A stretch of 64,000 nucleotides of DNA from an uncultured virus (IMG/VR IMGVR_UViG_3300019373_000270) (taxonomy: Duplodnaviria > Heunggongvirae > Uroviricota > Caudoviricetes): the IMG/VR virus record IMGVR_UViG_3300019373_000270; one strand, given 5' to 3'. Positions within the stretch are counted from its first letter, which is position 1. The number at the start of each line of letters is the position of its first letter. The notes under the pieces were generated by a model. It saw only the letters and a program-made list of their open reading frames with translations. It made no database searches and had not been told where the DNA came from. A program made the translations under genes and the position numbers. This document shows, in pieces, positions 1,898 through 63,758 of this stretch.

Positions 1898-1905
1898 GTG
1901 ACAAA

Positions 1906-3231: not shown

Positions 3232-3248
3232 TACCTTATAAGGAGAAT

Positions 3249-4130
3249 ATGATGTATTACGCGATTTTTTTTGCAGGAGTTTCCGTCCTGTTGATCTTTC
3301 TCGCTGCTATCATTAACATAAGAGAAAAGAAAACGATAATCAAAAAGTCAGATAATGATTTTATCGATGATTTTATTGAACATAAAAAGAAACATCTAGC
3401 TTCTATACCAGGTGCCATGTCAGTAAAAACTTACCTGACTCTTATGATTTTATTTGCGGTTGTTGGAGCCGTAGCTGCATGGTTTATCAGTAAAACATTA
3501 TGGATCTCTATTCTTTTATTTCTTCTCGGACTTTTTGTTCCGAAATTTATTGTCAATTATTCTGAACAAAAACATAAGAAGATTTTTGAAGAAAGATATG
3601 CAAGAGCATTGAGACAGTTATCGAGTTCTCTGAGGGCAGGCATGACATTACAGCAAGCTGTCGAAGATCTGTGTAATTGTCCTTTCATACACCACGAGAT
3701 CAAGCGAGAATTCAAGCAGATAAATGCAGATATACAGTTGGGATTTTCGGTTGCAGAAGCCTTTGCTCATATGGCTGACAGAATACCAACAGAAGATGTA
3801 AAAGATGTTTCATCAGCCATTAAGATGCAAAGTCTTGTTGGTGGTTCTGAAGCTGAATCAATAGAACTTATCACTAACAATATCAATTCAAGGATAATGC
3901 TGAGAAAAGAGATCAAGACTTTGTTTGCGAGTTCAAAAATGACCATAATCGGTATGGACATCCTTCCTGTACTTATTATAGGGTTCCTCTATATTTCATC
4001 TCCGATGTACTTTAGACCGTTATTTTCCACTTTGATAGGCAAACTTATTTTTGTGCTTGCGATTACGTTAATGATCATCGGAAGCTATATCGACAGGAAA
4101 TTCCTAAACAGAGTAAAAGGAAGTGATTAA
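3249..4130 (+). CDS. tadB: TadB-like (T2SS-F family) membrane platform protein
   Basis: TM segments, ALRQLSSSLRAGMTL motif, position after cpaF. Confidence 0.85.
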   Translation: MMYYAIFFAGVSVLLIFLAAIINIREKKTIIKKSDNDFIDDFIEHKKKHLASIPGAMSVKTYLTLMILFAVVGAVAAWFISKTLWISILLFLLGLFVPKFIVNYSEQKHKKIFEERYARALRQLSSSLRAGMTLQQAVEDLCNCPFIHHEIKREFKQINADIQLGFSVAEAFAHMADRIPTEDVKDVSSAIKMQSLVGGSEAESIELITNNINSRIMLRKEIKTLFASSKMTIIGMDILPVLIIGFLYISSPMYFRPLFSTLIGKLIFVLAITLMIIGSYIDRKFLNRVKGSD

Positions 4131-4991
4131 ATGGAAATAGCTATTGCTGTTTTTACAGGTATGACTGTTTTTTCCCTTATACTTCTTATAATAACAATGC
4201 TCACATCAGAAAGTGTGAGTCTGAAGACTAAAGAAAAAATAACAGTCGGGCACATCTGTAACAGGATAATACGAACGGATCCGGAAATTCTAGCTGAAAG
4301 ATTAGGGATACAAACGGATAAGTACATGTTTAACTGTAATTTAATAGGGAAAAAACCAGATCTGGAAAAACTCATAATAACAAGAGTATTAGCCGTAATA
4401 ATAGCCATACTGGGAGTCTTAGTTGCTCTGCTGTTAAACTCTATTTTAGTGTCAGCATTTATTGGAGTTGCAACTGCAGCAATAACAGTTTTGGTGTTTG
4501 TATCATCTACCCAAACAGTCAATGACCGAGCAAAAAAGAAAAAAGTACAATTTGAATCAGAATTGCCGAGATTTCTTGATCTGTTTCAGACAGCACTTAA
4601 GATAGATCTTCCCGTAGCAACAGCTATAAAGATCACAGCTGAAAGCATTGACGGATTACTTTCCGAAGAGCTTTTAAAAGCTCTTGTGGAAACGGAATTA
4701 GGAACAAGCAATTGGCAAGATTCACTGTACGCTATCGCTCAGAAATACGAGGTAGATAGTTTTTCTGATTTCGTCCTTGATATCGTTACCGCTTTTCAGA
4801 AAGGTTCTGATATTATAGAATCGGTCGAAAGGCAAAGCAGAAGCATAAAACAGTCTATGCTGTTGAATGCCAAAGAACAGGCGGCCAGAGTTACCAGTCT
4901 GATACTGCTTCCTGTTGTAATTTTCAAGATGATACCATTAATGGTTATTTTGTTTTTACCGGTCGTTCTGCAGATACTTAATGGCATGTAA
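4131..4991 (+). CDS. tadC: TadC-like (T2SS-F family) membrane platform protein
   Basis: ELPRFLDL motif, C-terminal LLPVVIF TM segment, position after tadB. Confidence 0.85.
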   Translation: MEIAIAVFTGMTVFSLILLIITMLTSESVSLKTKEKITVGHICNRIIRTDPEILAERLGIQTDKYMFNCNLIGKKPDLEKLIITRVLAVIIAILGVLVALLLNSILVSAFIGVATAAITVLVFVSSTQTVNDRAKKKKVQFESELPRFLDLFQTALKIDLPVATAIKITAESIDGLLSEELLKALVETELGTSNWQDSLYAIAQKYEVDSFSDFVLDIVTAFQKGSDIIESVERQSRSIKQSMLLNAKEQAARVTSLILLPVVIFKMIPLMVILFLPVVLQILNGM

Positions 4992-5070
4992 TTTCTGTTC
5001 TTGATAATTTTCTGCTATAATTAAAAATAGGGAAACACCCAAATGAAAACTAAAAAAAGGAGCGAAAATA

Positions 5071-5331
5071 ATGAAAGATTATACAAGAAAATTCTTTATT
5101 GAAGATGAAGGCGAAGAAGGTGCTGATTTTCTGGAGTATGCCGTCATAGTAGGTTTGTCGGCAATTCTGATCGCCGTAATAATTGCGGTATTTATGATCG
5201 TAAGAAATAAGGTACTGCATTCCGCAAAAGAGATCGATGAAGCAGGTAATGATTCTACGTCAGTTGATTGGGATGCTGTTCTTCAAGATAAGGATAAAGA
5301 AGTTAACGAAGCTATAAATAATATAGATTGA
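5071..5331 (+). CDS. flp: Flp family type IVb pilin
   Basis: EEG|ADFLEYAVIV cleavage site with EY motif followed by a hydrophobic helix. Confidence 0.85.
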   Translation: MKDYTRKFFIEDEGEEGADFLEYAVIVGLSAILIAVIIAVFMIVRNKVLHSAKEIDEAGNDSTSVDWDAVLQDKDKEVNEAINNID

Positions 5332-5335
5332 TGCT

Positions 5336-5848
5336 ATGTTTATCGTGAGAACTGTAATAGCCGCTGTCATTTGTTTGGCGGCGGCTATATTCGATTACAA
5401 GAATTCAAAAATACCGAATAAATTTACTTTTCCAATAATTATACTGAGTTTTATCTACTCGATTATATTCTATCCGCTGAATACAACAATATTCTCAGTA
5501 TTAGTAGTTGTGCTGCTTTTCTTCTACGGTATGACTGGTTGGATAGGTTTGGGGGATCTCAAACTTATAATGGCTTTGACTTTTATAGGAACATGGAAAA
5601 TGGGACTATGTTCATTCATTTTTTCTTCTATTTATCTTATAGTTTTCGGCTTAGTAACAAACCCTTACGAAACAGGATTTTACATGAAGAAAATGCTGAA
5701 CAGATTCAAATTGAAAAAAGAACCATTATATAAAAAATCCACTAAGTATAAATTTGCGCCATTTATTTTATTTGGAACTTTGACTTATTCGATGTTTTTT
5801 GATTTGTCAAGTCCGTTATACTTTAATTTTTTCGAGGGACTATTATGA
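5336..5848 (+). CDS. Prepilin peptidase (A24, TadV/CpaA-like)
   Basis: AAIFDYKNSKIPN, GLGDLKL and FAPFI motifs. Confidence 0.9.
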   Translation: MFIVRTVIAAVICLAAAIFDYKNSKIPNKFTFPIIILSFIYSIIFYPLNTTIFSVLVVVLLFFYGMTGWIGLGDLKLIMALTFIGTWKMGLCSFIFSSIYLIVFGLVTNPYETGFYMKKMLNRFKLKKEPLYKKSTKYKFAPFILFGTLTYSMFFDLSSPLYFNFFEGLL

Positions 5849-48161: not shown

Positions 48162-49519
48162 TTGGAGCAAATCGTGGGTTCAAAACGTCACTCAGAGTCA
48201 TTTCTACACAATAACTACCTAAAAACTACACCAGAACTGTCGTTTCATATTCGTTTTTTCACTCCTTTCATCCATATAATAATTCAAATTTTGAATAAAC
48301 ATAAAAAATTACAGGGGGGCAGTATAAAAACAAGAAAATCGAGAAGAAGAATAAAAGAATATAAAACTACGAAATCACTTCCCGAGGGAGGGAAATATCA
48401 AACACCGGCGAAAATCATCTTACAAGTAAGGTGTCTAAAATTTAGACAGTTTAATAAATCATCGTTCGGTGGTTTATTTCATTATCTTTTCAATCTATGC
48501 TCCATTATAACAATTCCGTATGAACTTTTTTCAAGCCTGCTCGTACATTTTTATATACAGAAGGAAGAAAAAGAATTCAAAAGGAAGAATCAAACAAGAA
48601 GAAAATATAAAGAAAAAATCCTTACACAAAAAGGAATAATCAAAATGATAAACTGATCGTTCTCTTTTACGAAAAGTGTCTAAAAATCAGACAAAAAATA
48701 AAATACATTCACACGTCTCTCTTCTCAAAAATTTTCCATAATGTTTTCTTTCAAAAAAATAGAACAGTAATTCTTTGGTTTATAAAAAAGATAATCGAAA
48801 GGAAAGTGTAGTAACATACACACGAACAAAAACGTCCCTGTGTAGTTCTGTTTCATACATCTATTCAACTCTCTGTCAAAAAAAAATCTCACATACTTAT
48901 TTTTACATACGGGAAAATATACAAACATTCCCTTATCATTCTTTTTCTTCACTCTTCCTTTGTACATCCATTCGTGTACAACTACGTGCATTATCTTTAT
49001 TTCCCTGAGTAAAACTTTCTATTCGGTAAATCTTCATTCTTTTTATCATTTTATCACTTCGTATCTGTCAGAGATCCTTTTATATCTTTTGTATCATCAG
49101 TATGAAATAGACCGTCCGATCATCATTCCTTTTCTCATTCTTTTCCATTATCATCTTGTAAAATGACCGATAAAAAATCATACAGAAACATCATTTAAAT
49201 TTCTGTATGATAAAAAATAATCACTTTCAAAAATATTTTTCTGAAAATATTTTCAGAGAATAATTATTCGGTATAATAATCATAAGCACGTTTTCTCTAA
49301 TGGTATCTTCATTTCAACCATCTAACATAATTTTTCCTATATATTTCATCTATGATTTCCGTCATATTGTTTTTCACCATAATAAAAATAATCTCTCTAA
49401 TGTTCCGATATCTCAGAACATTTCTCATAATGTTTTCTCACCGTTCTTCATTCCTATTATCATTTTTCTGTATAATAAAAAAAGACCCCGCGTAATGCGA
49501 GGTCAAAAAATAGCGGATC

Positions 49520-49903
49520 TCAATATGCAGGAGTAAAAGTACAGCCGGCTGATTCACATGCAGCCTTCATTTCTTCAACTTCATTTTCTCTTCTTTTCTT
49601 TCTCCAGTATTCTTCGTACTCTTTTGTCCCCGGAGTAAATATCTTACCGGTATTATAAAAAGAATTCTCAGGAGGAAGAATGGTCGTCGGAAGATTTTCG
49701 TAAAGTTCCATTTCTCTTACACTTATTTCGTTGCTAAAGAGATCCTCATATGAGGATTCGTATATGCATGGGTCGTTATATTTTCTGCAGTACTCTTCTG
49801 CGTCTTCTTTGTTGGAAGTAGCGAAAAGAATTTCTTCTTTGCTAACGGCATCACCGAATCCGCCGTCAACGTCGTATGAATGGATAATAAGATAGATTTT
49901 CAT
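49520..49903 (-). CDS. Hypothetical protein
   Basis: AAAGGAG SD; MKIYLIIHSYDVDGGFGDA start. Confidence 0.6.
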   Translation of the reverse strand: MKIYLIIHSYDVDGGFGDAVSKEEILFATSNKEDAEEYCRKYNDPCIYESSYEDLFSNEISVREMELYENLPTTILPPENSFYNTGKIFTPGTKEYEEYWRKKRRENEVEEMKAACESAGCTFTPAY

Positions 49904-50035
49904 ATGTAAAAACTCCTTTATAATAATAAGATCCAACTCGACTCCAAGTTATCAAGTAATAGATCTGATGTAATTATAAAAGAAAATACATAGCGATAAA
50001 ATAAACCATGAGAAAAAAATATACCTGCGGTCTAC

Positions 50036-50064
50036 TTGATTTTTTCTGAAAGATATGTTATAAT
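50036..50064 (+). promoter_or_regulatory. SigmaA promoter of tRNA operon 1
   Basis: TTGATT-17 bp-(TG)TATAAT. Confidence 0.8.
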
Positions 50065-50096
50065 GACCACAACATCAAAGAAAGGAGAAAACCGAA

Positions 50097-50225
50097 ATGA
50101 AAAAGTTCACTGTTTCATATCTGTATAGCGAATCATTACAGAGCCTCGTCCTCGAATCGGAAGAGACTTCTTTTGTGCTGCATACAGATAAAGCGGATGA
50201 ACATTTCGGGATCTCTTATTTCTGA
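50097..50225 (+). CDS. Leader peptide 1 (42 aa, Leu/Glu/Ser-rich): MKKFTVSYLYSESLQSLVLESEETSFVLHTDKADEHFGISYF
   Basis: AAAGGAG SD; lies between promoter and attenuator terminator. Confidence 0.8.
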   Translation: MKKFTVSYLYSESLQSLVLESEETSFVLHTDKADEHFGISYF

Positions 50226-50246
50226 GTATATTGATCCTTGTAAGTG

Positions 50247-50279
50247 AAACACCGTCTGTTTGCAGCAGGCGGTGTTTTT
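50247..50279 (+). terminator. Attenuator terminator 1
   Basis: AAACACCGTCTGT-TTGCA-GCAGGCGGTGTTT-TT, 5 nt before the first tRNA. Confidence 0.85.
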
Positions 50280-50284
50280 GTTAT

Positions 50285-50359
50285 GCCCGAATGATGGAAA
50301 TTGGCATACATTCCTGTCTTAGAAACAGGCTTCTGAGAGTTCGAATCTCTCTTCGGGTA
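50285..50359 (+). tRNA. tRNA-Leu(TAG), short variable loop
   Basis: CCTGT-CT TAG AA-ACAGG; GAGAG-TTCGAAT-CTCTC. Confidence 0.9.
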
Positions 50360-50364
50360 CTTAT

Positions 50365-50438
50365 GCGGGATTGGCGGAACAGGCATACGCAGCGGTCTCA
50401 AATACCGTTTTTTCAGGGTTCGACTCCCTGATCCCGCA
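50365..50438 (+). tRNA. tRNA-Leu(CAA), short variable loop
   Basis: GCGGT-CT CAA AT-ACCGT; CAGGG-TTCGACT-CCCTG. Confidence 0.9.
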
Positions 50439-50446
50439 TTTGATAT

Positions 50447-50519
50447 GCTCCCGTAGACCAACGGCAGAGTCAGCGGCTTTAAACACCGTTAAGTGTGAGT
50501 TCAAATCTCATCGGGAGTA
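50447..50519 (+). tRNA. tRNA-Leu(TAA), short variable loop
   Basis: GCGGC-TT TAA AC-ACCGT (31-39 mismatch); GTGAG-TTCAAAT-CTCAT. Confidence 0.8.
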
Positions 50520-50554
50520 TCAGGATCAATATATTCGGAAAGGAGATGTTTTCA

Positions 50555-50779
50555 ATGCCCGTTATAGATGTCAAGGCGACAGGTGCGAACATCAAAGCTA
50601 TAATGAAGATGAAAGGCTTTAAGATAGCCGATGTTCAGGAGAGGTGCGGCTTCAATACCCCGCAGGCTATTTTCAAATGGATGCGTGGAGATGCTGTGCC
50701 TACCATCGACAATATGATTATCATTGCCGATATGTTCGACGTGACAATAGACCAGATAGTTATAATCAAAAGGATATGA
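50555..50779 (+). CDS. XRE-family HTH protein (copy 1, inside tRNA operon 1)
   Basis: GFNTPQAIFKWMRGDAVPTIDN; AAGGAG SD. Confidence 0.9.
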   Translation: MPVIDVKATGANIKAIMKMKGFKIADVQERCGFNTPQAIFKWMRGDAVPTIDNMIIIADMFDVTIDQIVIIKRI

Positions 50780-50854
50780 CTTGTCAGGAAATATTGATAC
50801 ATAATAAAACAATGCACAGTTGCGGGATATGCTAACTTACCTGTAACTTGCTTC

Positions 50855-50926
50855 GGCCGCATCGTCTAATGGTCAGGACACAAGGTTTTCAACCTTGAAA
50901 TGTGGGTTCAACTCCCACTGCGGTCA
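50855..50926 (+). tRNA. tRNA-Glu(TTC)
   Basis: CAAGG-TT TTC AA-CCTTG; complete cloverleaf. Confidence 0.9.
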
Positions 50927-51011
50927 TTATAGCGCCCCATTTGAAATTCAGACAAGTTCCATGCTTTTGCGGCAGTGTTTTGTGGATTTCAATAGTCGGA
51001 ATGCTAAAAAT

Positions 51012-51106
51012 GTCCGTGTGTATGAACGTCATCAACATAGTTGATGACCGGAATACATACTCGGTTCAGAACCGAGGTTTTGTGAGTTCGAGTCTCCCCA
51101 CGGATA
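51012..51106 (+). tRNA. tRNA-Leu(CAG)-like with a 21-nt hairpin inserted in the D-loop
   Basis: Acceptor GTCCGTG/CACGGAT; CTCGG-TT CAG AA-CCGAG; T-loop TTCGAGT. Confidence 0.75.
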
Positions 51107-51109
51107 TAC

Positions 51110-51182
51110 GGCGGATTCGTCTAATTGGACAGGACAGGAGACTTTCAATTTCCAAATATGGGTTCGAGCCCCGTATCCGTCA
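51110..51182 (+). tRNA. tRNA-Glu(TTC)
   Basis: GGAGA-CT TTC AA-TTTCC. Confidence 0.88.
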
Positions 51183-51202
51183 TAAGTAGCTTACAAAGCT
51201 AC

Positions 51203-51231
51203 TTGACAATTCTCTGTATGAGTGATATAAT
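51203..51231 (+). promoter_or_regulatory. SigmaA promoter of tRNA operon 2
   Basis: Perfect TTGACA-17 bp-(TG)TATAAT. Confidence 0.9.
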
Positions 51232-51287
51232 CAGTTACAACAACAGGGGAGCAACAAACTCCCGAATTACTTTACGAAAGGATGAGA

Positions 51288-51425
51288 ATGATGAACTCTG
51301 CTAAGAACATTTCTGTTATCAGATGGTTTGAGTATCAGTATAGCTTTAGCTTTAGTTTTGACCAGTGTGGTCAAGGCTTTGTTGTACTGCATACTAAACC
51401 CGATGATCTTTCAGGTTCAAGATAG
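51288..51425 (+). CDS. Leader peptide 2 (45 aa, Phe/Gln/Cys/Trp): MMNSAKNISVIRWFEYQYSFSFSFDQCGQGFVVLHTKPDDLSGSR
   Basis: GAAAGGA SD; lies between promoter and terminator. Confidence 0.8.
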   Translation: MMNSAKNISVIRWFEYQYSFSFSFDQCGQGFVVLHTKPDDLSGSR

Positions 51426-51456
51426 AGTTTATCTGCCATCTTCTGATAGAACATAT

Positions 51457-51493
51457 CGTCTGTATGTAGTGCGAACTCATACGGACGTTTTTT
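51457..51493 (+). terminator. Attenuator terminator 2
   Basis: CGTCTGTATG...(GCGA loop)...CATACGGACG followed by T6. Confidence 0.85.
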
Positions 51494-51518
51494 ATTTCTA
51501 TCGGAAGGTGGTATTATT

Positions 51519-51749
51519 ATGACTTCGGAAATGCCGGTCATTGATATGACAGCGACAGGCTCTAACATAAAAACTCTTATAAAAGAAAAAGGTCTGAAAG
51601 TGGCTGAAATTCAGAACATTCTGGGGTTCAACACACCTCAGTCCATATTCAAGTGGATGAGAGGGGAGTCCATGCCCTCTATCGACAATCTGGTGATACT
51701 GGCACATATCCTGAATGTCACCATTGATGAGATAATAATCCTGAACTGA
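51519..51749 (+). CDS. XRE-family HTH protein (copy 2, first gene of tRNA operon 2)
   Basis: GFNTPQSIFKWMRGESMPSIDN; paralogue of 50555-50779. Confidence 0.9.
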   Translation: MTSEMPVIDMTATGSNIKTLIKEKGLKVAEIQNILGFNTPQSIFKWMRGESMPSIDNLVILAHILNVTIDEIIILN

Positions 51750-51773
51750 ATGTCCCGAAATCTCGGGACACAT

Positions 51774-51846
51774 GCCCTTGTAGCTCAGTTGGTAGAGCGC
51801 AGGTCTGAAGAACCTGGCGCCGCAAGTTCGATCCTTGCCGAGGGCA
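51774..51846 (+). tRNA. tRNA-Phe(GAA)
   Basis: CAGGT-CT GAA GA-ACCTG. Confidence 0.92.
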
Positions 51847-51852
51847 TTATGA

Positions 51853-51923
51853 TTCCGTTTCGTCTAGTGGTAGGACATCGGTTTCTGACACCGAAAACGG
51901 GAGTTCAAATCTCTCAGCGGAAA
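51853..51923 (+). tRNA. tRNA-Gln(CTG)
   Basis: TCGGT-TT CTG AC-ACCGA; U1-A72. Confidence 0.9.
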
Positions 51924-51926
51924 TAT

Positions 51927-51997
51927 GACTGTGTAGCCAAGCGGAAAGGCAGTCGGCTGCAACCCGACGAGCGTAGGTTCGACCCCTATCACAGTCT
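51927..51997 (+). tRNA. tRNA-Cys(GCA)
   Basis: GTCGG-CT GCA AC-CCGAC; U73. Confidence 0.92.
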
Positions 51998-52007
51998 TTT
52001 GCTAAAT

Positions 52008-52080
52008 GCCTTTGTAGCTCAGTTGGTAGAGCGTATGCCTGAAGAGCATAGCGTCGCAAGTTCGATTCTTGCCGGAGGCA
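52008..52080 (+). tRNA. tRNA-Phe(GAA)
   Basis: TATGC-CT GAA GA-GCATA. Confidence 0.92.
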
Positions 52081-52086
52081 CTATGA

Positions 52087-52158
52087 TTCCGTTTCGTCTA
52101 ACAGGCAGGACAACAGACTTTGACTCTGTAAGTGGGAGTTCGACCCTCTCAGCGGAAG
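52087..52158 (+). tRNA. tRNA-Gln(TTG)
   Basis: ACAGA-CT TTG AC-TCTGT. Confidence 0.92.
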
Positions 52159-52162
52159 CTAT

Positions 52163-52234
52163 AGGAGAATAGTTCAATGGCTAGAATGACGGTCTCCAAA
52201 ACCGTAGATCTCAGTTCGACTCTGAGTTTTCCTG
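52163..52234 (+). tRNA. tRNA-Trp(CCA)
   Basis: ACGGT-CT CCA AA-ACCGT; G73. Confidence 0.92.
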
Positions 52235-52251
52235 TCTATACTACAGGTTTA

Positions 52252-52280
52252 TTGAAATCTGTTCTAAGTTATGTTATAAT
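52252..52280 (+). promoter_or_regulatory. SigmaA promoter of tRNA operon 3
   Basis: TTGAAA-17 bp-(TG)TATAAT. Confidence 0.85.
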
Positions 52281-52312
52281 GTCATTAAAGAAATCAAGAA
52301 AGGACGATCATC

Positions 52313-52405
52313 ATGAAAAACACAGTATTTGTATTCTCATATTCGTATAGTTATTCAAGCGTTGTTCAGAAGAATAGGGCTCGATTGGCTATGCGCGAAT
52401 GTTGA
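52313..52405 (+). CDS. Leader peptide 3 (30 aa, Ser/Tyr run): MKNTVFVFSYSYSYSSVVQKNRARLAMREC
   Basis: GAAAGGA SD; lies between promoter and terminator. Confidence 0.85.
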   Translation: MKNTVFVFSYSYSYSSVVQKNRARLAMREC

Positions 52406-52431
52406 TACTGTTTGATGATAAGTTTCAGCAT

Positions 52432-52465
52432 ATACCGTTTGGCTTTCGGGTCAGGCGGTATTTTT
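52432..52465 (+). terminator. Attenuator terminator 3
   Basis: ATACCGTTTGGCT-TTCG-GGTCAGGCGGTAT followed by a T run. Confidence 0.85.
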
Positions 52466-52476
52466 ATTTGTTATTC

Positions 52477-52562
52477 GGGAGAGTCACCCAGCGGCGAGGG
52501 AAGCGGTCCGTAAAACCGTGACATCTGAAACACCGAAGGTTCGAGTCCTTCCTCTCCCACCA
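52477..52562 (+). tRNA. tRNA-Tyr(GTA), C33, encoded CCA
   Basis: GCGGT-CC GTA AA-ACCGT; long variable region. Confidence 0.85.
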
Positions 52563-52566
52563 ACAC

Positions 52567-52652
52567 GGGCAGGTACAGAGAATCGGCAAACTCGGCGGTC
52601 TGTAAAACCGTTGCTTTATGCACAGTGGGGTCGGCACCCACCCTGCCCACCA
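52567..52652 (+). tRNA. tRNA-Tyr(GTA), atypical T-loop GTCGGCA, encoded CCA
   Basis: GCGGT-CT GTA AA-ACCGT. Confidence 0.85.
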
Positions 52653-52655
52653 TAT

Positions 52656-52748
52656 ACCGACATAATCCTAATAGGTAAGGGATCATCTTGGAAAGGTGAC
52701 AGTAATCAGGCTATCCCTGATGTTTCGGTTCGAGTCCGAATGTCGGTG
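52656..52748 (+). tRNA. tRNA-Ser(GGA)
   Basis: TCATC-TT GGA AA-GGTGA; long variable arm; G73. Confidence 0.85.
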
Positions 52749-52754
52749 TCATAC

Positions 52755-52840
52755 GCTGTGTTAGTGTAATAGGTAACACACTGCTCCCGAAAAGCAGCGT
52801 CCTTACGGGCATACAGGTTCGAGTCCTGTACACAGCGCCA
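52755..52840 (+). tRNA. tRNA-Ser(CGA), C33, encoded CCA
   Basis: CTGCT-CC CGA AA-AGCAG; variable arm; G73. Confidence 0.85.
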
Positions 52841-52843
52841 TAC

Positions 52844-52938
52844 GGTCACATAAGCCTAATTGGTAAGGCAGCGGTTTGCTAAACCGTGAGTAATCGGGTT
52901 ATTCTGATGTCCGAGTTCAAGTCTCGGTGTGGCCGCCA
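52844..52938 (+). tRNA. tRNA-Ser(GCT), encoded CCA
   Basis: GCGGT-TT GCT AA-ACCGT; long variable arm; G73. Confidence 0.9.
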
Positions 52939-52941
52939 TCT

Positions 52942-53026
52942 GCCGTGTATGCAGGTTGGCTCTGCAAACTGTCCTGAAAACAGCATACCGTAAAGCGGTA
53001 CGAGGGTTCGATCCCCTCACACGGCG
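52942..53026 (+). tRNA. tRNA-Ser(TGA), C33, A8
   Basis: ACTGT-CC TGA AA-ACAGC; variable arm TACCG/CGGTA; G73. Confidence 0.8.
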
Positions 53027-53035
53027 CTGAAGCTA

Positions 53036-53068
53036 AAAGAACTTGCTATTATTGTAAGTTCTTTTTTT
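53036..53068 (+). terminator. Terminator closing the tRNA array
   Basis: AAAAGAACTTGC...GTAAGTTCTTTTTTT. Confidence 0.75.
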
Positions 53069-53133
53069 ATTGTTTCAAGTTTTCTTCTATCATAACATCA
53101 AGAATTCGTTTTCAATCAAAGGAGGAACTTTAT

Positions 53134-53250
53134 ATGTTTGAAAAAATAAAGTATGAGCCAACAGAACAGGATAAATCATTTCCTCTGTACAATGATGGGA
53201 TAGAAGAAAACGACGATGATTATGAATTTGAAGAATATAACTGTGACTAA
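53134..53250 (+). CDS. Small acidic protein (38 aa) MFEKIKYEPTEQDKSFPLYNDGIEENDDDYEFEEYNCD
   Basis: AAAGGAGG SD; too short for the ORF track. Confidence 0.5.
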   Translation: MFEKIKYEPTEQDKSFPLYNDGIEENDDDYEFEEYNCD

Positions 53251-53370
53251 ACAAACCATATATGATTTTTTATCCGTCATAATTTTCTGCTAATATATAA
53301 TCAGTATTTGAGAATTGATGGCCGGAGTATTTTTCTCAAATAACTTTTATAAACCAAAAGGAGAAAAAAC

Positions 53371-53670
53371 ATGTTTGATGAATTAACTTTAGAAAAAAAC
53401 GATCTTGATATCGAAGAACCCAAAGATTATAAACTGATGTTATGGAATGACGATACTACACTTATAGATACAGTTGTAAAAGTACTAACTGACATCATTG
53501 GTTTTGATACCCAAAAAGCTGTAAATGTAACGATAAAGGCTCATAACTTCGGGAACTGCTGCGTAGGTATGTATCCCTACGAAATAGCAGAAACGCTAAT
53601 GGTAGAATCAATGAAGTATGTCCATTCAAGAGGTTATCATGATTTTAAAATGACAGTGGAGGAAGCATAG
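53371..53670 (+). CDS. clpS: ClpS N-degron adaptor
   Basis: YKLMLWNDDTT..DTVVKVL...AH.FG...VGMYPYEIAET. Confidence 0.9.
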   Translation: MFDELTLEKNDLDIEEPKDYKLMLWNDDTTLIDTVVKVLTDIIGFDTQKAVNVTIKAHNFGNCCVGMYPYEIAETLMVESMKYVHSRGYHDFKMTVEEA

Positions 53671-55941
53671 ATGAATATAAATCAATTAATAAAAGAAACG
53701 GCAGATTATGTAGACTCGAAGAACAGAACACTTATTACTACCGAGGATCTGTTGATAGTAATGATGTCAAAACTCAATGAATATAATATTCTTGACTTCG
53801 ATGAAGCTATCGAATTTCTGGAGGAATATCAGCGGGAAAATTTTGAGAGGACCCCATTAAAAAACATCAAGAAAATGATAATAAGCCAGAGAATATACGA
53901 ATTACAGGAAATGATAGAATCATCGCCTGTTGCAGTACAGAACACACATGATGTCCCTCTTACAGTCGTAATGACCTTCATCGCCTCATCCGAAATAGAT
54001 TCAATGGCTTCCATATTATCTAAAAGACTTATTGGCAGCGATACTGCCAAATTTGAAAAGCTTATATCAGCCGAGACTGAGAAAATTCCGGATTTTAAAT
54101 TTAATATAAATTCATTCAGAGATTATAAAGAAGATAAACGACAAACAACAAACGAAAGAAAGACAGGCACAAAAGAAAAAAGATCTGCTCTTGAATGTTT
54201 CGGCATAGATCTTTCTGAACGAGAAAGGAGAAATCCTCTTGTAGGCAGAGAAAAAGAAATGCAGCGTGTGATAGAAGTCCTTCTCAAAAAGGACAAGCCT
54301 AATCCTATCCTGACCGGATCTCAGGGAGTTGGCAAAACCGCTGTGGTACAGGAACTTGCCATAAGAATAAAAGAAGGAAATGTTCCAAAGGCAATAAAAG
54401 ATACTGTAAGATCTATATACAGTATAGAAATTGCCGATCTTCTTGCTGGTTCTAAGTACAGAGGAGAATTTGAAGAAAAACTGAAAGCTGTTCTGGAAGA
54501 AGTAAATAACTCCGACCGTTCTGTAATTCTCTATATCGATGAAATACACACTATCATGGGTGCAGGTGCTAATCCGGACAATCCTGTTGATGCAGCAAAT
54601 ATCCTTAAACCGTATCTTACAAACGGAACTATAAGGATAATAGGCTCTACTACTACCGATGAGTACAGGAAGTTCATCGAAAGAGATAAAGCGCTCGCAA
54701 GAAGATTTATGCCTGTGGATATTCCAGAGCCTTCAGTAGAAGATACTATAAAAATCCTGAATGGTATAAAAGAAGGTTACGAAAAGTTTCATGGCGTGAC
54801 CTATTCAGCAAATGCAATAGAAGCTGCTGTAAAAATGTCAGCTCAATATATTCACGATAGATGTCTGCCGGATAAAGCTATTGATCTTATTGATGAAGCC
54901 GGGGCTAAATACGCAGCCGGTGTATACAAGAACAATACGATCAGTGTAGACGATATTGAAAATGTCCTTTTTGAAACATATAAGATACCCGGGTCACAGA
55001 TGACCCGTGATGAATCAGAGGACGTAAAATGCCTTTCCGATAACCTGAATAAAAAAATATTCGGACAGGAGGAAGCAGCCAACGCTTTGATGAAGCGCAT
55101 CAAACTTGCAAAGGCAGGAATAAGAGATCTGTCAAAGCCCATAGCTAACATACTGTTTGTAGGTCCGACAGGGACAGGAAAGACAGAGATCAGTAAAGTC
55201 CTTGCTGAATCCTTAAAGATGAAACTGCTCAGATTTGATATGTCTGAGTACCAGGAAGAACATACAGTCGCAAAACTGTTCGGCTCGCCTGCAGGCTATG
55301 TCGGATATGAGGATGGCGGCTTGCTTACAAATGCGGTGAGGTCAGACCCTAACTGTGTTCTGCTGCTTGATGAGATAGAAAAAGCACATCCAAAGGTCTA
55401 TAACGCCCTTCTTCAGGCTATGGATTACGGTATGATGACCGATTCAAAGGGAGTGAAAGTTGATTTTACGAACACTGTAATAATTATGACTTCCAATGCG
55501 GGAGCTGATTCAATAGTAAAGAAAAATGTCGGTTTCGGGAAATCATCCGAAACATTAGATATTTCAGCTATGGATAAAGCACTTGAAGAAAAATTTCCTC
55601 CTGAATTCAGAGGAAGGCTTACAGATGTTGTGAAATTCAATGATCTTACTCCTGAAATATCTGAAATGATAGTAAAGAAAGAGATCGCTGCTCTGGCAGA
55701 TAACCTCACTAAGAAAAATGTCAAGCTCACAGTTACCGACAGCTGCATCGAACATCTGGCTGAGATCGGATACACTCCCATGACGGGAGCAAGAAATATA
55801 AAAAATCTTGTATCAAAAGAAATCTCCGAACTTATAGTCGATGATATGCTCTTCGGAAAACTCAAAAACGGAGGAAGTATAAAGATAGACCGGTTGGAAA
55901 AGAAATACAGAAAAACTATACGAACAAAGAAAACTATTTGA
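53671..55941 (+). CDS. clpA: ClpA-like double AAA+ unfoldase
   Basis: LVGREKE, GSQGVGKT, GSKYRGEFEE, GPTGTGKT, RFDMSEYQE, VGF loop; no long middle domain; adjacent clpS. Confidence 0.9.
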   Translation: MNINQLIKETADYVDSKNRTLITTEDLLIVMMSKLNEYNILDFDEAIEFLEEYQRENFERTPLKNIKKMIISQRIYELQEMIESSPVAVQNTHDVPLTVVMTFIASSEIDSMASILSKRLIGSDTAKFEKLISAETEKIPDFKFNINSFRDYKEDKRQTTNERKTGTKEKRSALECFGIDLSERERRNPLVGREKEMQRVIEVLLKKDKPNPILTGSQGVGKTAVVQELAIRIKEGNVPKAIKDTVRSIYSIEIADLLAGSKYRGEFEEKLKAVLEEVNNSDRSVILYIDEIHTIMGAGANPDNPVDAANILKPYLTNGTIRIIGSTTTDEYRKFIERDKALARRFMPVDIPEPSVEDTIKILNGIKEGYEKFHGVTYSANAIEAAVKMSAQYIHDRCLPDKAIDLIDEAGAKYAAGVYKNNTISVDDIENVLFETYKIPGSQMTRDESEDVKCLSDNLNKKIFGQEEAANALMKRIKLAKAGIRDLSKPIANILFVGPTGTGKTEISKVLAESLKMKLLRFDMSEYQEEHTVAKLFGSPAGYVGYEDGGLLTNAVRSDPNCVLLLDEIEKAHPKVYNALLQAMDYGMMTDSKGVKVDFTNTVIIMTSNAGADSIVKKNVGFGKSSETLDISAMDKALEEKFPPEFRGRLTDVVKFNDLTPEISEMIVKKEIAALADNLTKKNVKLTVTDSCIEHLAEIGYTPMTGARNIKNLVSKEISELIVDDMLFGKLKNGGSIKIDRLEKKYRKTIRTKKTI

Positions 55942-59932: not shown

Positions 59933-60199
59933 TTGTACTTCAGTTCTTTGAATGAAGTCTCGATGTTAAGGACGATGTTGAGTGGGGCTTTACCTATTTT
60001 CTGCCTGAATTTAAAAAAACGTCTGTAAGATATGGGGCTTCATTCTGCCTAAAGTCTCCGACATAGAGGGTGAAATCGACCTGTGGACTGCGGAAATCGA
60101 AAAGAATTTCAGGGTTATCAGGGCAGAATCCTATGAAGCGATACTGGAAGAAATACAGCAATAATATAGAATACTTATCTATCAGAGGTGGTGAACTTC

Positions 60200-60886
60200 A
60201 TGTGTACTTGGTTCTATGCCGATTATAAGCCTTTATCGGCTATTATTGATAAGGCACAACAACTGTCGCTTACCGACAGCATAATGAACGCTATGTCAAA
60301 ACCTAAAACTATGTCTGGCAATATCCGTCCTACTGATATGGCAGCGGTGTTTGCTCCGAATAAGCAAGGCAATATGGCTGTGTTCCCGATGATATGGGGC
60401 TTCACGGTCGAACAATCATCAAAACCGCTTATCAACTGTCGTATTGAAACAGCCGATCAAAAGCCTTTATGGAAGGACTCTTGGTTCAGGCGGAGATGTG
60501 TTATTCCGGCATCATGGTACTACGAATGGGGCATACCGCCCTCCGAGGTCGGCTATCATAACGCCAATGAGCAGCACAAGATAAAAAAAGAAAAGTATGC
60601 GATTCAACCTGAAGGAGCTGAGATCACATACCTCGCCGGATTGTACCGTTTTGAGGAACATCGTGGAGTACAGATACCAATGTTTGCCGTCATAACAAGG
60701 GAATCGGTCGAACCCGTAAGCTCTATCCATGACCGAATGCCACTTATCCTCGGCAAAGACAGCTTGCGTGAATGGGTGCGCCCTGACGGTGATCCCAGCA
60801 GAATAGCGAAAAAGGCTTTGACGAATATGGTCATGGAGAAAGCGGTTGACTATCCTGAGCCGAAGCCGGAGTTTATGCAGATATAA
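60200..60886 (+). CDS. SOS response-associated peptidase (SRAP/YedK/HMCES family)
   Basis: N-terminal MC, NIRPT, MIWGF, LINCRIET, RRCVIPASWYYEW, IHDRMPLIL. Confidence 0.92.
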   Translation: MCTWFYADYKPLSAIIDKAQQLSLTDSIMNAMSKPKTMSGNIRPTDMAAVFAPNKQGNMAVFPMIWGFTVEQSSKPLINCRIETADQKPLWKDSWFRRRCVIPASWYYEWGIPPSEVGYHNANEQHKIKKEKYAIQPEGAEITYLAGLYRFEEHRGVQIPMFAVITRESVEPVSSIHDRMPLILGKDSLREWVRPDGDPSRIAKKALTNMVMEKAVDYPEPKPEFMQI

Positions 60887-60914
60887 AATGGTGATAATGG
60901 AAGGAGCTTGAGAT

Positions 60915-61376
60915 ATGTTTTTCAAAAAAGCTAAAAAGGAAAAACAAGAAAACGAAACAATAAATAATGCAGTTTTCGGAGAGCTTGAATACGTTGACTG
61001 TGCGTGGGAAGGATATTCGGTAAGCTCGCTGTTTGGTGAAGAAAAGACTATTGATCTGTATGTATATGCTGATGAAGACGAAAAGACCATTGGAGAGCAT
61101 CAGGAAAAGGTATATCAGAATTATCTCAGGTATCGTATAGAAATCGAAGACGCTGTCAGAAAAGTCATTTTCAGAGAATTTAAGCTCCCGTATGATTTTG
61201 ACCTTACATCAAGATTCAGAGTAAGTTCGATAATAGTGACCTGTGACGGTAATTGCGGCTTGGCAATAGTTGACAACACCTATGAAATGGGACATAACCG
61301 TTTCAAATTTGTGGTCGAAACCGAACCTGATTATGAATTCACAGATTCAGAAGAATATTATATAGAAACTAAATGA
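60915..61376 (+). CDS. Hypothetical protein, immunity-protein-like
   Basis: NAVFGELEY..AW start typical of small acidic immunity-like proteins. Confidence 0.4.
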   Translation: MFFKKAKKEKQENETINNAVFGELEYVDCAWEGYSVSSLFGEEKTIDLYVYADEDEKTIGEHQEKVYQNYLRYRIEIEDAVRKVIFREFKLPYDFDLTSRFRVSSIIVTCDGNCGLAIVDNTYEMGHNRFKFVVETEPDYEFTDSEEYYIETK

Positions 61377-61419
61377 TAACAGGTAAATAAGATCACTTTC
61401 AAAAAAAGGGCGGTGAAAC

Positions 61420-62913
61420 ATGAACAAGGTATATGTAGCGATAGACCTCAAATCCTTCTATGCATCATGCGAGTGCGTAGAGCTTGGGCTTGATCCGCTG
61501 AACACAAATCTTGTGGTAGCAGATCAGAGCCGCACCGAAAAGACGATATGCCTTGCCGTTTCGCCGTCACTGAAAAGCTACGGAATTTCGGGCAGAGCAA
61601 GGCTGTTTGAGGTCGTGCAGCGTGTGAAAGAAGTCAATGAACAGCGGCAACGGAAAGCTCCCAACAGACAGCTCACGGACAAGAGCTTCATCTACTCGGA
61701 GCTTATTTCAAATCCGTCCCTCGCCGTTGACTATGTGGTAGCGACTCCGCAGATGGCGCACTATATGAAAGTGAGCGCCGATATTTACGGCATTTATCTG
61801 AAATACGTTGCTCCAGAAGATATTTTCGCATACTCGGTGGACGAGGTTTTCATTGATGCAACTGGCTATCTCAGCACCTACCATACGGACGGTCACGGTT
61901 TTGCTCGTATGCTGATACAAGATGTGCTTGACACAACGGGTATCACGGCTACGGCAGGAGTCGGCACGAATATGTTTCTGTGCAAGGTCGCTATGGATAT
62001 TGTGGCGAAACATATTCCGGCGGATAAGGACGGTGTGCGTATCGCAGAGCTTGACGAGCAGACTTTCAAGGATAAATGGTGGTCGCACACGCCGATCACG
62101 GACTTCTGGAGAGTAGGTGCAGGAACGGCAAAGCGCCTTGAAACGCTCCATATCTATACTATGGGCGATATTGCGAGATATTCCCTTGACCGCTATCATA
62201 TCGGCAAACTGTATAAGCTCCTAGGTAAAAATGCAGAGCTGCTAATAGATCATGCGTGGGGCATTGAACCGACTACCATAGCCGATGTGAAAGCCTACAA
62301 GCCGTCAAACAACAGTATTACATCGGGACAAGTCCTGCAAGAGCCTTGCGACTATGACCGAACACGACTGATCGTGTGGGAAATGGCGGATATGCTCTCC
62401 CTTGACTTGGTGGATAAAGGGCTTGTGACAAATCAGATCGTACTGACTATTGGCTATGACCGTGAGAGCCTTGCGGACGGTCACTATCGGGGCGAAGTGG
62501 TTTCCGACCGCTACGGCAGACAAGTTCCGAAACACGCCCACGGTACACAGAACCTCGATAAGCACACATCGTCCACAAGGAAAATGGTCGAAGCGACAAT
62601 GACGCTTTTTGACCGTATATTCGATAAAACTCTGCTTGCAAGGCGAATAAACCTTGTTGCCTGCAATGTCATCAAGGAAAGCGATGTGCCTGAGAGCGAG
62701 AGCTACGAACAGCTTTCCCTGTTCGATACGGAAGAAACAATACAAGACCGTGTGGACGATGAGAAGGCGCTTGAAAAAGAAAGAGCATTGCAGGAAGCGA
62801 TTCTCACGATCAAGCATAAATTCGGAAAGAATGCCGTTCTGAAAGGTACGAATTTTACGGAAGGTGCTACGGCGAAGGAGCGTAACCGGCAAATTGGCGG
62901 GCATAAGGCTTGA
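61420..62913 (+). CDS. Y-family DNA polymerase (ImpB/MucB/UmuC type)
   Basis: IDLKSFYASCEC, YSVDEVFID, TGITATAGVG, DFWRVG, KFGKNAV...ERNRQIGGH. Confidence 0.93.
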   Translation: MNKVYVAIDLKSFYASCECVELGLDPLNTNLVVADQSRTEKTICLAVSPSLKSYGISGRARLFEVVQRVKEVNEQRQRKAPNRQLTDKSFIYSELISNPSLAVDYVVATPQMAHYMKVSADIYGIYLKYVAPEDIFAYSVDEVFIDATGYLSTYHTDGHGFARMLIQDVLDTTGITATAGVGTNMFLCKVAMDIVAKHIPADKDGVRIAELDEQTFKDKWWSHTPITDFWRVGAGTAKRLETLHIYTMGDIARYSLDRYHIGKLYKLLGKNAELLIDHAWGIEPTTIADVKAYKPSNNSITSGQVLQEPCDYDRTRLIVWEMADMLSLDLVDKGLVTNQIVLTIGYDRESLADGHYRGEVVSDRYGRQVPKHAHGTQNLDKHTSSTRKMVEATMTLFDRIFDKTLLARRINLVACNVIKESDVPESESYEQLSLFDTEETIQDRVDDEKALEKERALQEAILTIKHKFGKNAVLKGTNFTEGATAKERNRQIGGHKA

Positions 62914-62921
62914 GGTGGTAT

Positions 62922-63323
62922 ATGAAAAGAATAATTGGAAATGTTGGATGTTTTCGCCTTCCTGATGGAAGATACGGCTTTGGAAGAATATACACTGATG
63001 CGTGTGTAGCATTTTATAAGCATATAGGCACTTCTGAAACAGATTTACCCCAAAATGAGGATTATGCTTTCATAGTTGGTTTATACAATAGCGGTATAAC
63101 CCAAATGAAACTTGTAGAAAAACGACCATTCCATTCACTTGAAGAATCTATACCGCCTTCTACTAAGGTACATGATCCGATTTCCGGCAAGTATAGTATC
63201 TATAAAAACGGTGAATTATTTCCGTCATCTTATGAAGAATGTAAAGAGCTTGAAACTTGTGCAGTATGGGAATTGAACCATGTAATCGACAGACTTATGG
63301 GTGATGATAAATGGAATATTTGA
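62922..63323 (+). CDS. Imm26-like immunity protein
   Basis: GNVGCFRLPDGRYGFGRI...LETCAVW..NHVIDRL. Confidence 0.55.
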   Translation: MKRIIGNVGCFRLPDGRYGFGRIYTDACVAFYKHIGTSETDLPQNEDYAFIVGLYNSGITQMKLVEKRPFHSLEESIPPSTKVHDPISGKYSIYKNGELFPSSYEECKELETCAVWELNHVIDRLMGDDKWNI

Positions 63324-63338
63324 AAAAATAAGGAATGA

Positions 63339-63758
63339 TTGGATATGCCCAATAATTACGATGATATAAAACACCTCACTCGTCCGCAGTATGACGATCT
63401 GCACCCTATGTCAATGCACGACAGGGCGGCACAGTTCTCACCCTTTGCGGCACTTGTGGGCTATGACGATGCCGTTGCCGAGACTGCAAGGCTGACCGAC
63501 AGCAAGGTAGAGCTGACAGAGGACGAAATGTCTGAGCTAAACGCTAATCTGAATCGCCTGCTTGACAGCTTGGACGAACAACCGCAGATCAGCGTAACTT
63601 ACTTCGTTCCCGATGAAAAGAAGTCGGGCGGTAAGTATGTGGAAAAGCAAGGTGTGGTGCGGATATTTGATAGCTATTCACAGGAGCTTATCTTCAAAGA
63701 CAGGTTCAGGATAAACATTCAGGATATAATCAAGATAGAGTTCAAAGGGGAGTGCTGA
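63339..63758 (+). CDS. YolD-like protein
   Basis: YDDIKHL.RP...MSMHDRAAQFSPFAALVGY. Confidence 0.85.
   Translation: MDMPNNYDDIKHLTRPQYDDLHPMSMHDRAAQFSPFAALVGYDDAVAETARLTDSKVELTEDEMSELNANLNRLLDSLDEQPQISVTYFVPDEKKSGGKYVEKQGVVRIFDSYSQELIFKDRFRINIQDIIKIEFKGEC

Follow-up and report, generated by a model that had tools for sequence, protein, structure and literature searches.

The stretch of DNA analysed here (64,000 nucleotides from an uncultured virus, IMG/VR record IMGVR_UViG_3300019373_000270; hereafter the window) carries a dense array of tRNA genes divided into three operons, each preceded by a promoter, a Shine-Dalgarno (SD) sequence, a short open reading frame (ORF) and an intrinsic terminator. 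This layout had been proposed from the letters alone (the sequence-only reading), and all its parts are indeed present, three times over, between positions 50020 and 53072. The same reading saw in each short ORF a leader peptide whose codons match the tRNAs downstream, and in each unit a ribosome-mediated transcription attenuator. That central proposal is now supported by two kinds of covariation, between leaders and their tRNA cargo and within the competing RNA helices, which point to the units as probable attenuators.

All features of the array lie on the plus strand. ARAGORN at default settings finds 15 tRNAs between 50285 and 52938, and the same 15 exceed the Rfam gathering score, with an additional sub-threshold match resembling tRNA-Sec at 52941-53026. 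Relaxed ARAGORN settings (-ps90) add Tyr-GTA at 52567-52652, Ser-TGA at 52942-53027 and an aberrant element of 97 nucleotides (nt) at 51011-51107; in all, 17-18 tRNA genes are packed into 2.7 kb of the window. Operon 1 contains Leu-TAG, Leu-CAA and Leu-TAA (50285-50521, 76 nt each, without a long variable arm), Glu-TTC (50855-50926), the aberrant element and a second Glu-TTC (51110-51182). Operon 2 consists of Phe-GAA, Gln-CTG, Cys-GCA, Phe-GAA, Gln-TTG and Trp-CCA (51773-52236), and operon 3 of two Tyr-GTA genes followed by Ser-GGA, Ser-CGA, Ser-GCT and Ser-TGA (52477-53027), where one Tyr-GTA, with a degenerate T loop, and Ser-TGA are called by relaxed ARAGORN only. The original count of 18 tRNAs in three sets of six thus holds for the grouping and for 17 of the genes, but one member is ambiguous: the element at 51011-51107, first taken for Leu-CAG, is folded by relaxed ARAGORN as Arg-CCG with a long extra arm, leaving its anticodon ambiguous. 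This element (L001:3364-3450 in Ruminococcus albus 7) has an extra hairpin; in an alternative fold its anticodon loop is of the Leu type, and the element could be either an unusual tRNA or a pseudogene.

The three promoters all have a 17-nt spacer and a TG-extended -10: TTGATT-17-TATAAT at 50036-50064 (10 of 12 consensus positions), TTGACA-17-TATAAT at 51203-51231 (12 of 12) and TTGAAA-17-TATAAT at 52252-52280 (11 of 12). Terminator 1, formed by segments 3 and 4 and a T run, occupies 50250-50281 (stem 50250-50274), terminator 2 lies at 51457-51493 (stem 51457-51487, T run to 51493) and terminator 3 at 52433-52470 (stem 52433-52460, then a T run); a further terminator detected by the terminator scan closes the array at 53035-53072. 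Compared with shuffled sequence, the array region is rich both in promoter-like sites by consensus scan (17 vs 8.9 +/- 2.7) and in terminator-like sites (13 vs 2.8 +/- 1.7). In operons 1 and 3, just 3-6 nt separate the T run from the first tRNA; in operon 2, the T run is followed after about 25 nt by a helix-turn-helix (HTH) gene. The cargo would thus be reached only via readthrough of the terminator. The sequence of the terminator-1 hairpin (50245-50279) recurs in another context in contigs of organism B (runs X16 and X20), and it therefore appears to be used again as a terminator elsewhere in that genome.

Leader ORF 1 (50097-50225, 42 amino acids (aa), SD GGAG at 50084-50087) contains five Leu and five Glu residues. 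Its segment 1 is TAT CTG TAT at 50118-50126, its variable control codons are codons 11-25, and its segment 2, CTG CAT ACA GAT A at 50178-50190 (the ‘LHTD’ codons), has an alternative pairing with the 5′ arm and loop of terminator 1 (50255-50265). Leader ORF 2 (51291-51425, 44 aa, its start codon picked from an alignment with homologues) contains five Phe, three Gln, one Cys and one Trp; segment 1 covers the E-Y-Q-Y codons (51331-51341) and segment 2 the V-L-H-T codons (51384-51395), with which positions 51462-51470 of terminator 2 are able to pair. Leader ORF 3 (52313-52405, 30 aa) contains the string SYSYSYSS, encoded by the control codons TCA TAT TCG TAT AGT TAT TCA AGC at 52337-52360. These ORFs represent leader classes 1, 2 and 3, respectively, and the residue counts first reported for them were all correct on recount. 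Set against the composition of 14 long window proteins, leader 2 has 10 Phe, Gln, Cys or Trp residues (3.3 expected) and leader 3 has 8 Tyr or Ser (3.2 expected). The claimed leader-cargo match is therefore clear for these two within the window, but leader 1 is as rich in Ser and Tyr as in its cargo residues. Since all three leaders have more Ser and Tyr than expected, a point absent from the sequence-only reading, the codon match within the window is by itself no more than suggestive.

Also overlooked at first were two paralogous HTH_3 genes of the XRE type (PF01381), one within operon 1 (50555-50779, 74 aa, E 2.3e-9) and one as the first gene past terminator 2 (51519-51749, 76 aa, E 1e-10); operon 3, of class 3, has no HTH gene. 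An operator-like palindrome, TATACC-N4-GGTCTAC (50020-50035), abuts the -35 of promoter 1, the palindrome GTAGCTTACAAAGCTAC (51186-51202) abuts promoter 2, and a degenerate operator-like element, TATACTACAGGTTTA (52237-52251), which the motif regular expression does not match, precedes promoter 3.

Relatives were sought with an alignment of four HTH proteins as query, which found 78 loci in genomes of Ruminococcus and other Oscillospiraceae; together with the locus on plasmid pRUMAL01 of R. albus 7 and the window, these make up 80 sources. Across all sources ARAGORN reports 336 tRNAs, of which 330 share the strand of the HTH gene, and the isotypes are almost all Glu, Leu, Tyr, Ser, Gln, His, Phe, Cys, Trp and Asp. 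A finder for terminators and SD-preceded ORFs returned 77 units, 76 with cargo (53 of class 1, 20 of class 2 and 3 of class 3), and 64 of the 80 sources gave at least one. Among the 16 sources that gave none, four are cut off just 5′ of the HTH gene, ten have a promoter and leader and fail the cargo criteria, L043 has no recognised promoter motif, and in L012 (L012:4560-5010) the promoter and the 5′ half of the class-1 leader are swapped for unrelated sequence, with the 3′ half of the leader, segment 2 and the terminator retained ahead of HTH-Glu-His-Tyr-Glu-Ser. The HTH protein, present in 76 loci, is the sole protein conserved with the module; no other conserved protein neighbour was found, other families occurring in at most 16 loci. 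Class 3 is confined to a few R. albus-like genomes: in the family of G001, 10 of the 401 genomes sampled gave matches, all of them weak and 24-46 nt long, and in the genus of G402 matches occur in 5 of 39 genomes, four with full-length copies (five copies, 87-95% identical) and the fifth with a partial 92-nt match at 78%.

The palindrome at the array promoters has the form TATACC-N4-GGTTTAC, with GTAGCTTACAAAGCTAC at the class-2 promoters of the R. albus type. In the 1.4 Mb of loci (L001-L079) there are 78 copies of the motif, all on the plus strand and all at array promoters; by regular expression it marks 68 of 72 class 1 and 2 units and none of the 3 class-3 units. We take it to be the probable operator of the co-transcribed HTH protein. 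After 77 of the 78 operator-plus-promoter matches there follows an SD and an ATG-initiated ORF of 25-60 aa. Forty-eight chance matches to the operator-plus-(-35) pattern in metagenomes served as a negative control; an ORF follows one of them and an HTH gene none, and they were rejected as relatives.

This constancy of the ORF bears on whether translation matters at all. T-boxes are common in Firmicutes, and the units could in principle be RNA-only switches of a similar kind, binding tRNA directly, with an incidental ORF. Yet in the leader alignments both SD and ATG show no variation or almost none, insertions and deletions in class-1 ORFs come, by eye, in multiples of three, and the cargo is tracked by many codons rather than by one specifier. 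A search of positions 49500-53600 against Rfam, moreover, returned no T-box and no other leader family at E <= 1. We find such a switch scarcely credible, the least probable of the explanations weighed here.

The dependence of leader composition on cargo was examined in 62 units that remained after removal of duplicates and of units at contig ends. For nine of ten amino acids, the leader contains more of the residue when the cognate tRNA is in the cargo than when it is not: the mean counts with and without it are 7.04 and 2.68 for Leu, 5.46 and 2.08 for Glu, 3.22 and 2.15 for Tyr, 4.0 and 0.58 for Gln, 2.77 and 1.40 for His, 4.64 and 2.41 for Phe, 1.82 and 0.33 for Cys, 1.0 and 0.04 for Trp, and 5.67 and 1.10 for Asp, the contrast being largest for Trp, Gln, Cys and Asp. 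When cargo was shuffled among leaders, a procedure that ignores relatedness, none of 20000 shuffles over all units reached the observed match; within class 1 the figure was likewise 0 of 20000, and within class 2 it was 16 of 20000. Covariation of leader and cargo among homologous arrays, of the kind that the sequence-only reading had put forward as its own check together with a permutation test, is therefore found at the level of residues. Relatedness was addressed with a tree of the HTH gene (57 rows), on whose supported branches independent pairs were counted: pooled over the ten amino acids, 12.4 pairs change in the same direction, 0.7 in the opposite direction and 17.9 show no difference.

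At the level of codons, the cargo anticodons can read 788 of the 902 cargo-type codons, and Ser, which does not follow the cargo as a residue, does so as a codon, AGY making up 122 of 143 Ser codons where Ser-GCT is in the cargo vs 87 of 154 where there is no Ser tRNA. Individual loci point in the same direction. The R. albus 7 locus has the layout of the window, but its operon 2 begins with tRNA Asp-GTC instead of Phe-GAA, and its leader has four Asp before the VLHT motif vs one in the window; this swap of tRNA together with a gain of Asp in the leader was the first sign of a joint change of leader and cargo. Similarly, L060 has neither a Cys tRNA nor a Cys codon in its leader, and L027, devoid of a Tyr tRNA, has one Tyr codon in its leader vs four in its relatives.

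Ribosome-mediated transcription attenuation in Firmicutes is best known from antibiotic-sensing leaders, and one could imagine that the leaders respond to translation stress in general or to antibiotics that target the ribosome, in the manner of the erm, cat and ABC-F leaders, rather than to particular codons. We consider this very improbable, because leader composition covaries with the cargo, the cargo consists of tRNAs and not of resistance genes, and the sole conserved peptide motif, VLHT, is explained by RNA pairing.

That pairing is documented by covariation. In 37 class-1 sequences, helix 1:2, which joins the Y-L-Y codons to the L-H-T-D codons, is 95.9% paired with 2 compensatory pairs; helix 2:3, between segment 2 and the terminator 5′ arm and loop, is 95.3% paired with 3 compensatory pairs, a level reached by none of 500 shuffles; and the terminator helix is nearly invariant at 99.7% paired. 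The 17 class-2 sequences show 2 compensatory pairs in helix 2:3 (98.7% paired) and 2 in the terminator (98.2% paired); segment 1 of this class sits in the variable control region, where there is no reliable alignment. One column of class-1 segment 2 covaries with both its segment-1 and its segment-3 partners. Alternative pairing, originally claimed for all three leaders, is thus backed by covariation as a set of mutually exclusive helices in classes 1 and 2, and by folding in class 3. Duplex energies in the window are of similar range for the competing helices (in kcal/mol, -13.4 to -20.4 for 1:2, -14.1 to -18.0 for 2:3 and -16.7 to -18.0 for 3:4). In a scan of ribosome positions with the RNA cut before the terminator 3′ arm, a noisy procedure with a baseline of 0.45-0.62, sequestration of the 5′ arm peaks with the ribosome on W12-F22 of leader 2 or on S9-V18 of leader 3.

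Because the VLHT codons of class 1 and 2 leaders covary with segments 1 and 3, VLHT is a feature of the RNA and not of the peptide. This matters for the proposal that the ORFs encode functional small peptides with terminators of their own, the tRNAs being made by leaky readthrough or from internal promoters with no codon-specific control. An alternating hydrophobic and polar pattern in the leaders and the conserved VLHT motif could be cited in its favour, as could weak promoter-like sites within operons 1 and 2 (50576-50604, 50776-50805 and 51541-51568), which could feed distal tRNAs. However, RNA pairing accounts for VLHT, the variable part of the peptide shifts with the cargo, and there is no space for a promoter between terminator and first tRNA, so that we judge functional peptides to be a distinctly improbable explanation. 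The same sites bear on an objection anticipated in the sequence-only reading, that of promoters downstream of the terminators: none fits before the first tRNA or HTH gene, but those inside operons 1 and 2 are there.

Taken together, these results make it likely that each unit is a ribosome-mediated, leader-peptide transcription attenuator gating a block of accessory tRNAs, which would be made when decoding of its codons slows. Transcription would start from the strong sigma-70-type promoter, and the leader ORF would be loaded with a ribosome. Under fast reading, this ribosome would cover segment 2 while the polymerase makes segments 3 and 4, the terminator would form and transcription would stop; with no ribosome loaded, segments 1 and 2 would pair and the terminator would likewise form. 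Stalling on the control codons, at or just past segment 1, would instead leave segment 2 free to capture the terminator 5′ arm, so that no terminator forms and readthrough extends to the HTH gene and the tRNAs and, in some relatives, to an RNA ligase gene as well. As the downstream tRNAs read these very control codons, the block would be made when exactly those codons decode slowly, and the net effect would be a resupply loop for tRNA shortage. The HTH protein would probably act at the palindrome beside the -35 and so feed back on the promoter. Translation of the leader, stalling on it and conditional readthrough are steps that we infer from this architecture.

Several observations weigh against this interpretation. 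The internal promoter-like sites could bypass the gate for distal tRNAs. Leader 1 exceeds expectation in Leu and Glu (10 vs 6.6), yet it does so equally in Tyr and Ser (10 vs 4.4), and the stall scan shows no clear window for it. The Ser residue count is unrelated to cargo (4.55 with and 4.74 without the tRNA, over the 62 units), Leu codons do not follow the Leu isoacceptors present (104 of 175 readable), and cargo lists are incomplete since ARAGORN misses atypical tRNAs. In the tree-based comparison, 17.9 of 31 pairs represent a change of cargo with no change of leader, and individual amino acids contribute 1-5 pairs each, which leaves them underpowered, with pooling not fully independent. 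Class 3 depends on folding, because its full-length copies, at 87-95% identity, offer too little diversity for covariation. Three loci (L065, L072 and L074) keep leader, terminator and HTH gene with no tRNA cargo; their leaders (L065:4700-4870, L072:4713-4870, L074:254-410) are rich in Asn, Ile, Lys or Ser, with no matching tRNA nearby, and may be in decay or tuned to housekeeping tRNAs. L012, for its part, lacks the promoter and the 5′ portion of the leader. Equilibrium folding at full length forms the terminator at every ribosome position, and the switch must therefore be kinetic, relying on ribosome-polymerase coupling. Dominance of the terminator at equilibrium is also true of classical attenuators, and coupling is reportedly weak in Bacillus subtilis. 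Finally, three RNA studies of organism B yielded contigs of 3.6-8.4 kb that span the homologous region including its terminators, and metatranscriptome run X15 gives only short pieces; the runs being assembled Logan contigs, they are blind to transcripts, ends and levels.

What the tRNAs are for is suggested by comparison with the housekeeping set. Ruminococcus flavefaciens ATCC 19208 has 56 Rfam tRNA matches, 9 of them within one class-1 and one class-2 array, and the 45 non-array tRNAs typed by ARAGORN include every array anticodon. Identity of array tRNAs to the housekeeping tRNA of the same anticodon in this strain runs from 45/77 to 56/76. The tRNAs with Leu anticodons in the arrays (50285-50521 in the window; L002-L070) are 74-77 nt long and have no long variable arm; the housekeeping Leu tRNAs of R. 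flavefaciens (L085, L087, L088, L093, L100, L101) are 85-87 nt long and have one. To judge from these sequences, the array tRNAs are redundant, divergent spare copies of a complete housekeeping set, and the cluster has the character of an accessory tRNA array, dense and duplicating the host set, as checked in R. flavefaciens ATCC 19208.

A second clue is an RNA ligase gene with domains PF21189 (OB fold) and PF09414 (RNA_ligase) in R. flavefaciens-type genomes. It begins 19-36 nt past the last class-2 array tRNA at six loci (L061, L063, L076, L077, L078 and L079); it directly follows the HTH gene, with no tRNAs between, at L065:5418-6473 and L074:781-1836; and a fragment lies at L071:5727-5888. 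No homologue of the ligase was found in the window. The idea that the arrays serve as back-up tRNAs against tRNA damage thus receives indirect support, from the redundancy and divergence of the array copies and from the ligase gene appended in relatives.

Cognate control codons, a duplicate tRNA set and a ligase in relatives together make tRNA loss the most coherent trigger, and the shortage would most likely arise from tRNA-cleaving toxins. Starvation is disfavoured as a trigger because extra tRNA would not relieve a lack of amino acids. Stalling would nevertheless be the same for an absent and for an uncharged tRNA, and it may be argued that the attenuators sense amino-acid starvation through uncharged housekeeping tRNAs, with the HTH regulator as their real output and the tRNAs as passengers or otherwise used. 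That no protein other than the HTH protein (76 loci) is conserved alongside the module fits this alternative, as do the three loci that have leader, terminator and HTH gene with no tRNAs. It leaves unexplained, for mere passengers, why leader composition tracks the tRNA cargo even within a leader class; moreover, class 3 has no HTH gene, added tRNA brings no relief from starvation and the RNA ligase suggests RNA damage. On this balance a starvation sensor with an HTH output is unlikely.

It is tempting to extend the attenuator interpretation into a tRNA-damage response, a sense-and-repair circuit in which the leaders act as isoacceptor-level sensors of decoding failure caused by tRNA-cleaving toxins of competitors, of phages or of the cell itself, the divergent array tRNAs serve as replacements, possibly nuclease-resistant ones, the ligase reseals cut tRNAs in R. 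flavefaciens, and the HTH protein completes the feedback at its operator. This full circuit, in which trigger and HTH role are both conjectural, is offered tentatively, with less than even confidence.

The nearest DNA match to the window is plasmid pRUMAL01 of R. albus 7 (80.7% identity over 65% of the query), and the Tad-pilus, sortase, topoisomerase, ClpS/ClpA and UmuC-like genes of the window fit a megaplasmid. Assignment of the module to a mobile element is accordingly borne out for the window, but the module also resides on contigs of 0.5-0.7 Mb in R. flavefaciens genomes. A blastn search of a phage collection gave scattered tRNA-sized matches only, with no homologue of the leaders, and viral contigs searched with the HTH protein yielded 83 pattern matches, none of them a true relative. 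Directly 3′ of the array, at 53371-55941, lies a gene pair for ClpS (99 aa) and a ClpA-type AAA+ protein (756 aa). A set of Tad/type IV pilus genes at 365-5848 encodes a ParA-like ATPase, T2SSE, two T2SSF proteins and a prepilin peptidase, and a damage-tolerance cluster at 60188-63758 encodes SRAP, an UmuC/ImpB-family polymerase and a YolD-like protein; both sets fit a large plasmid of the conjugative or mobilisable kind. In R. albus 7, a hypothetical ORF of 148 aa with its own promoter-like sequence (L001:4117-4563, record 100648-101094) takes the position that the aberrant tRNA-like element and the second Glu tRNA have in the window.

If the attenuator interpretation is correct, a cell would gauge how fast each codon is decoded and replenish just those tRNAs that are scarce, which would explain the silence of accessory tRNA arrays until the need arises. 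The units would serve as modular, naturally occurring reporters of how abundant individual tRNAs are, would tie tRNA arrays to tRNA repair by RNA ligase and hence to conflicts involving tRNA-cleaving toxins, and would add another case of ribosome-coupled transcription attenuation in Clostridia. The model is open to direct testing in cultivable rumen bacteria.

In relation to known systems, the module is a new use of a known mechanism, leader-peptide attenuation, which in its textbook form gates amino-acid operons or synthetase genes. Like T-box riboswitches, the units would sense the state of specific tRNAs and decide between terminator and antiterminator ahead of translation-related genes; T-boxes, however, bind tRNA directly and without translation, whereas the modules described here have a conserved ORF and no T-box match. 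Accessory tRNA arrays occur in Firmicutes, mycobacteria and phages, and phage tRNAs as well as T4 RNA ligase and Pnkp counter anticodon nucleases. The present arrays resemble them in their dense, extra and divergent tRNA genes that duplicate the host set and, in relatives, in the linked RNA ligase, and differ in being gated, on our interpretation, by codon-matched leader peptides. The sequence-only reading knew of no account of leader-peptide attenuation of tRNA genes, and a full-text literature search, with subscription journals largely outside its reach, found none either.

A parallel in purpose is the pheM leader attenuator of Escherichia coli pheST, which controls an aminoacyl-tRNA synthetase and so likewise applies leader-peptide attenuation to the decoding machinery instead of amino-acid synthesis; there, in contrast to the tRNA modules, the product is a synthetase, one amino acid is sensed and the system is proteobacterial. 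A parallel in design is offered by trp, his, leu, thr, ilvGMEDA and pheA, the multivalent leader-peptide attenuators of enterobacterial amino-acid operons, with which the units share the promoter, the SD, the short ORF with regulatory codons, the mutually exclusive 1:2, 2:3 and 3:4 helices and the terminator; as in the thr and ilv leaders, one leader would sense several amino acids. Membership in this group was rejected, since the cargo consists of tRNAs and an HTH regulator gene, with an RNA ligase in some relatives, and not of biosynthetic enzymes. The modules further differ from the enterobacterial attenuators in their host, a Clostridia-class Firmicute, in leaders of 30-44 codons with control codons at and past segment 1, and in an output that would restore the sensed molecule itself.

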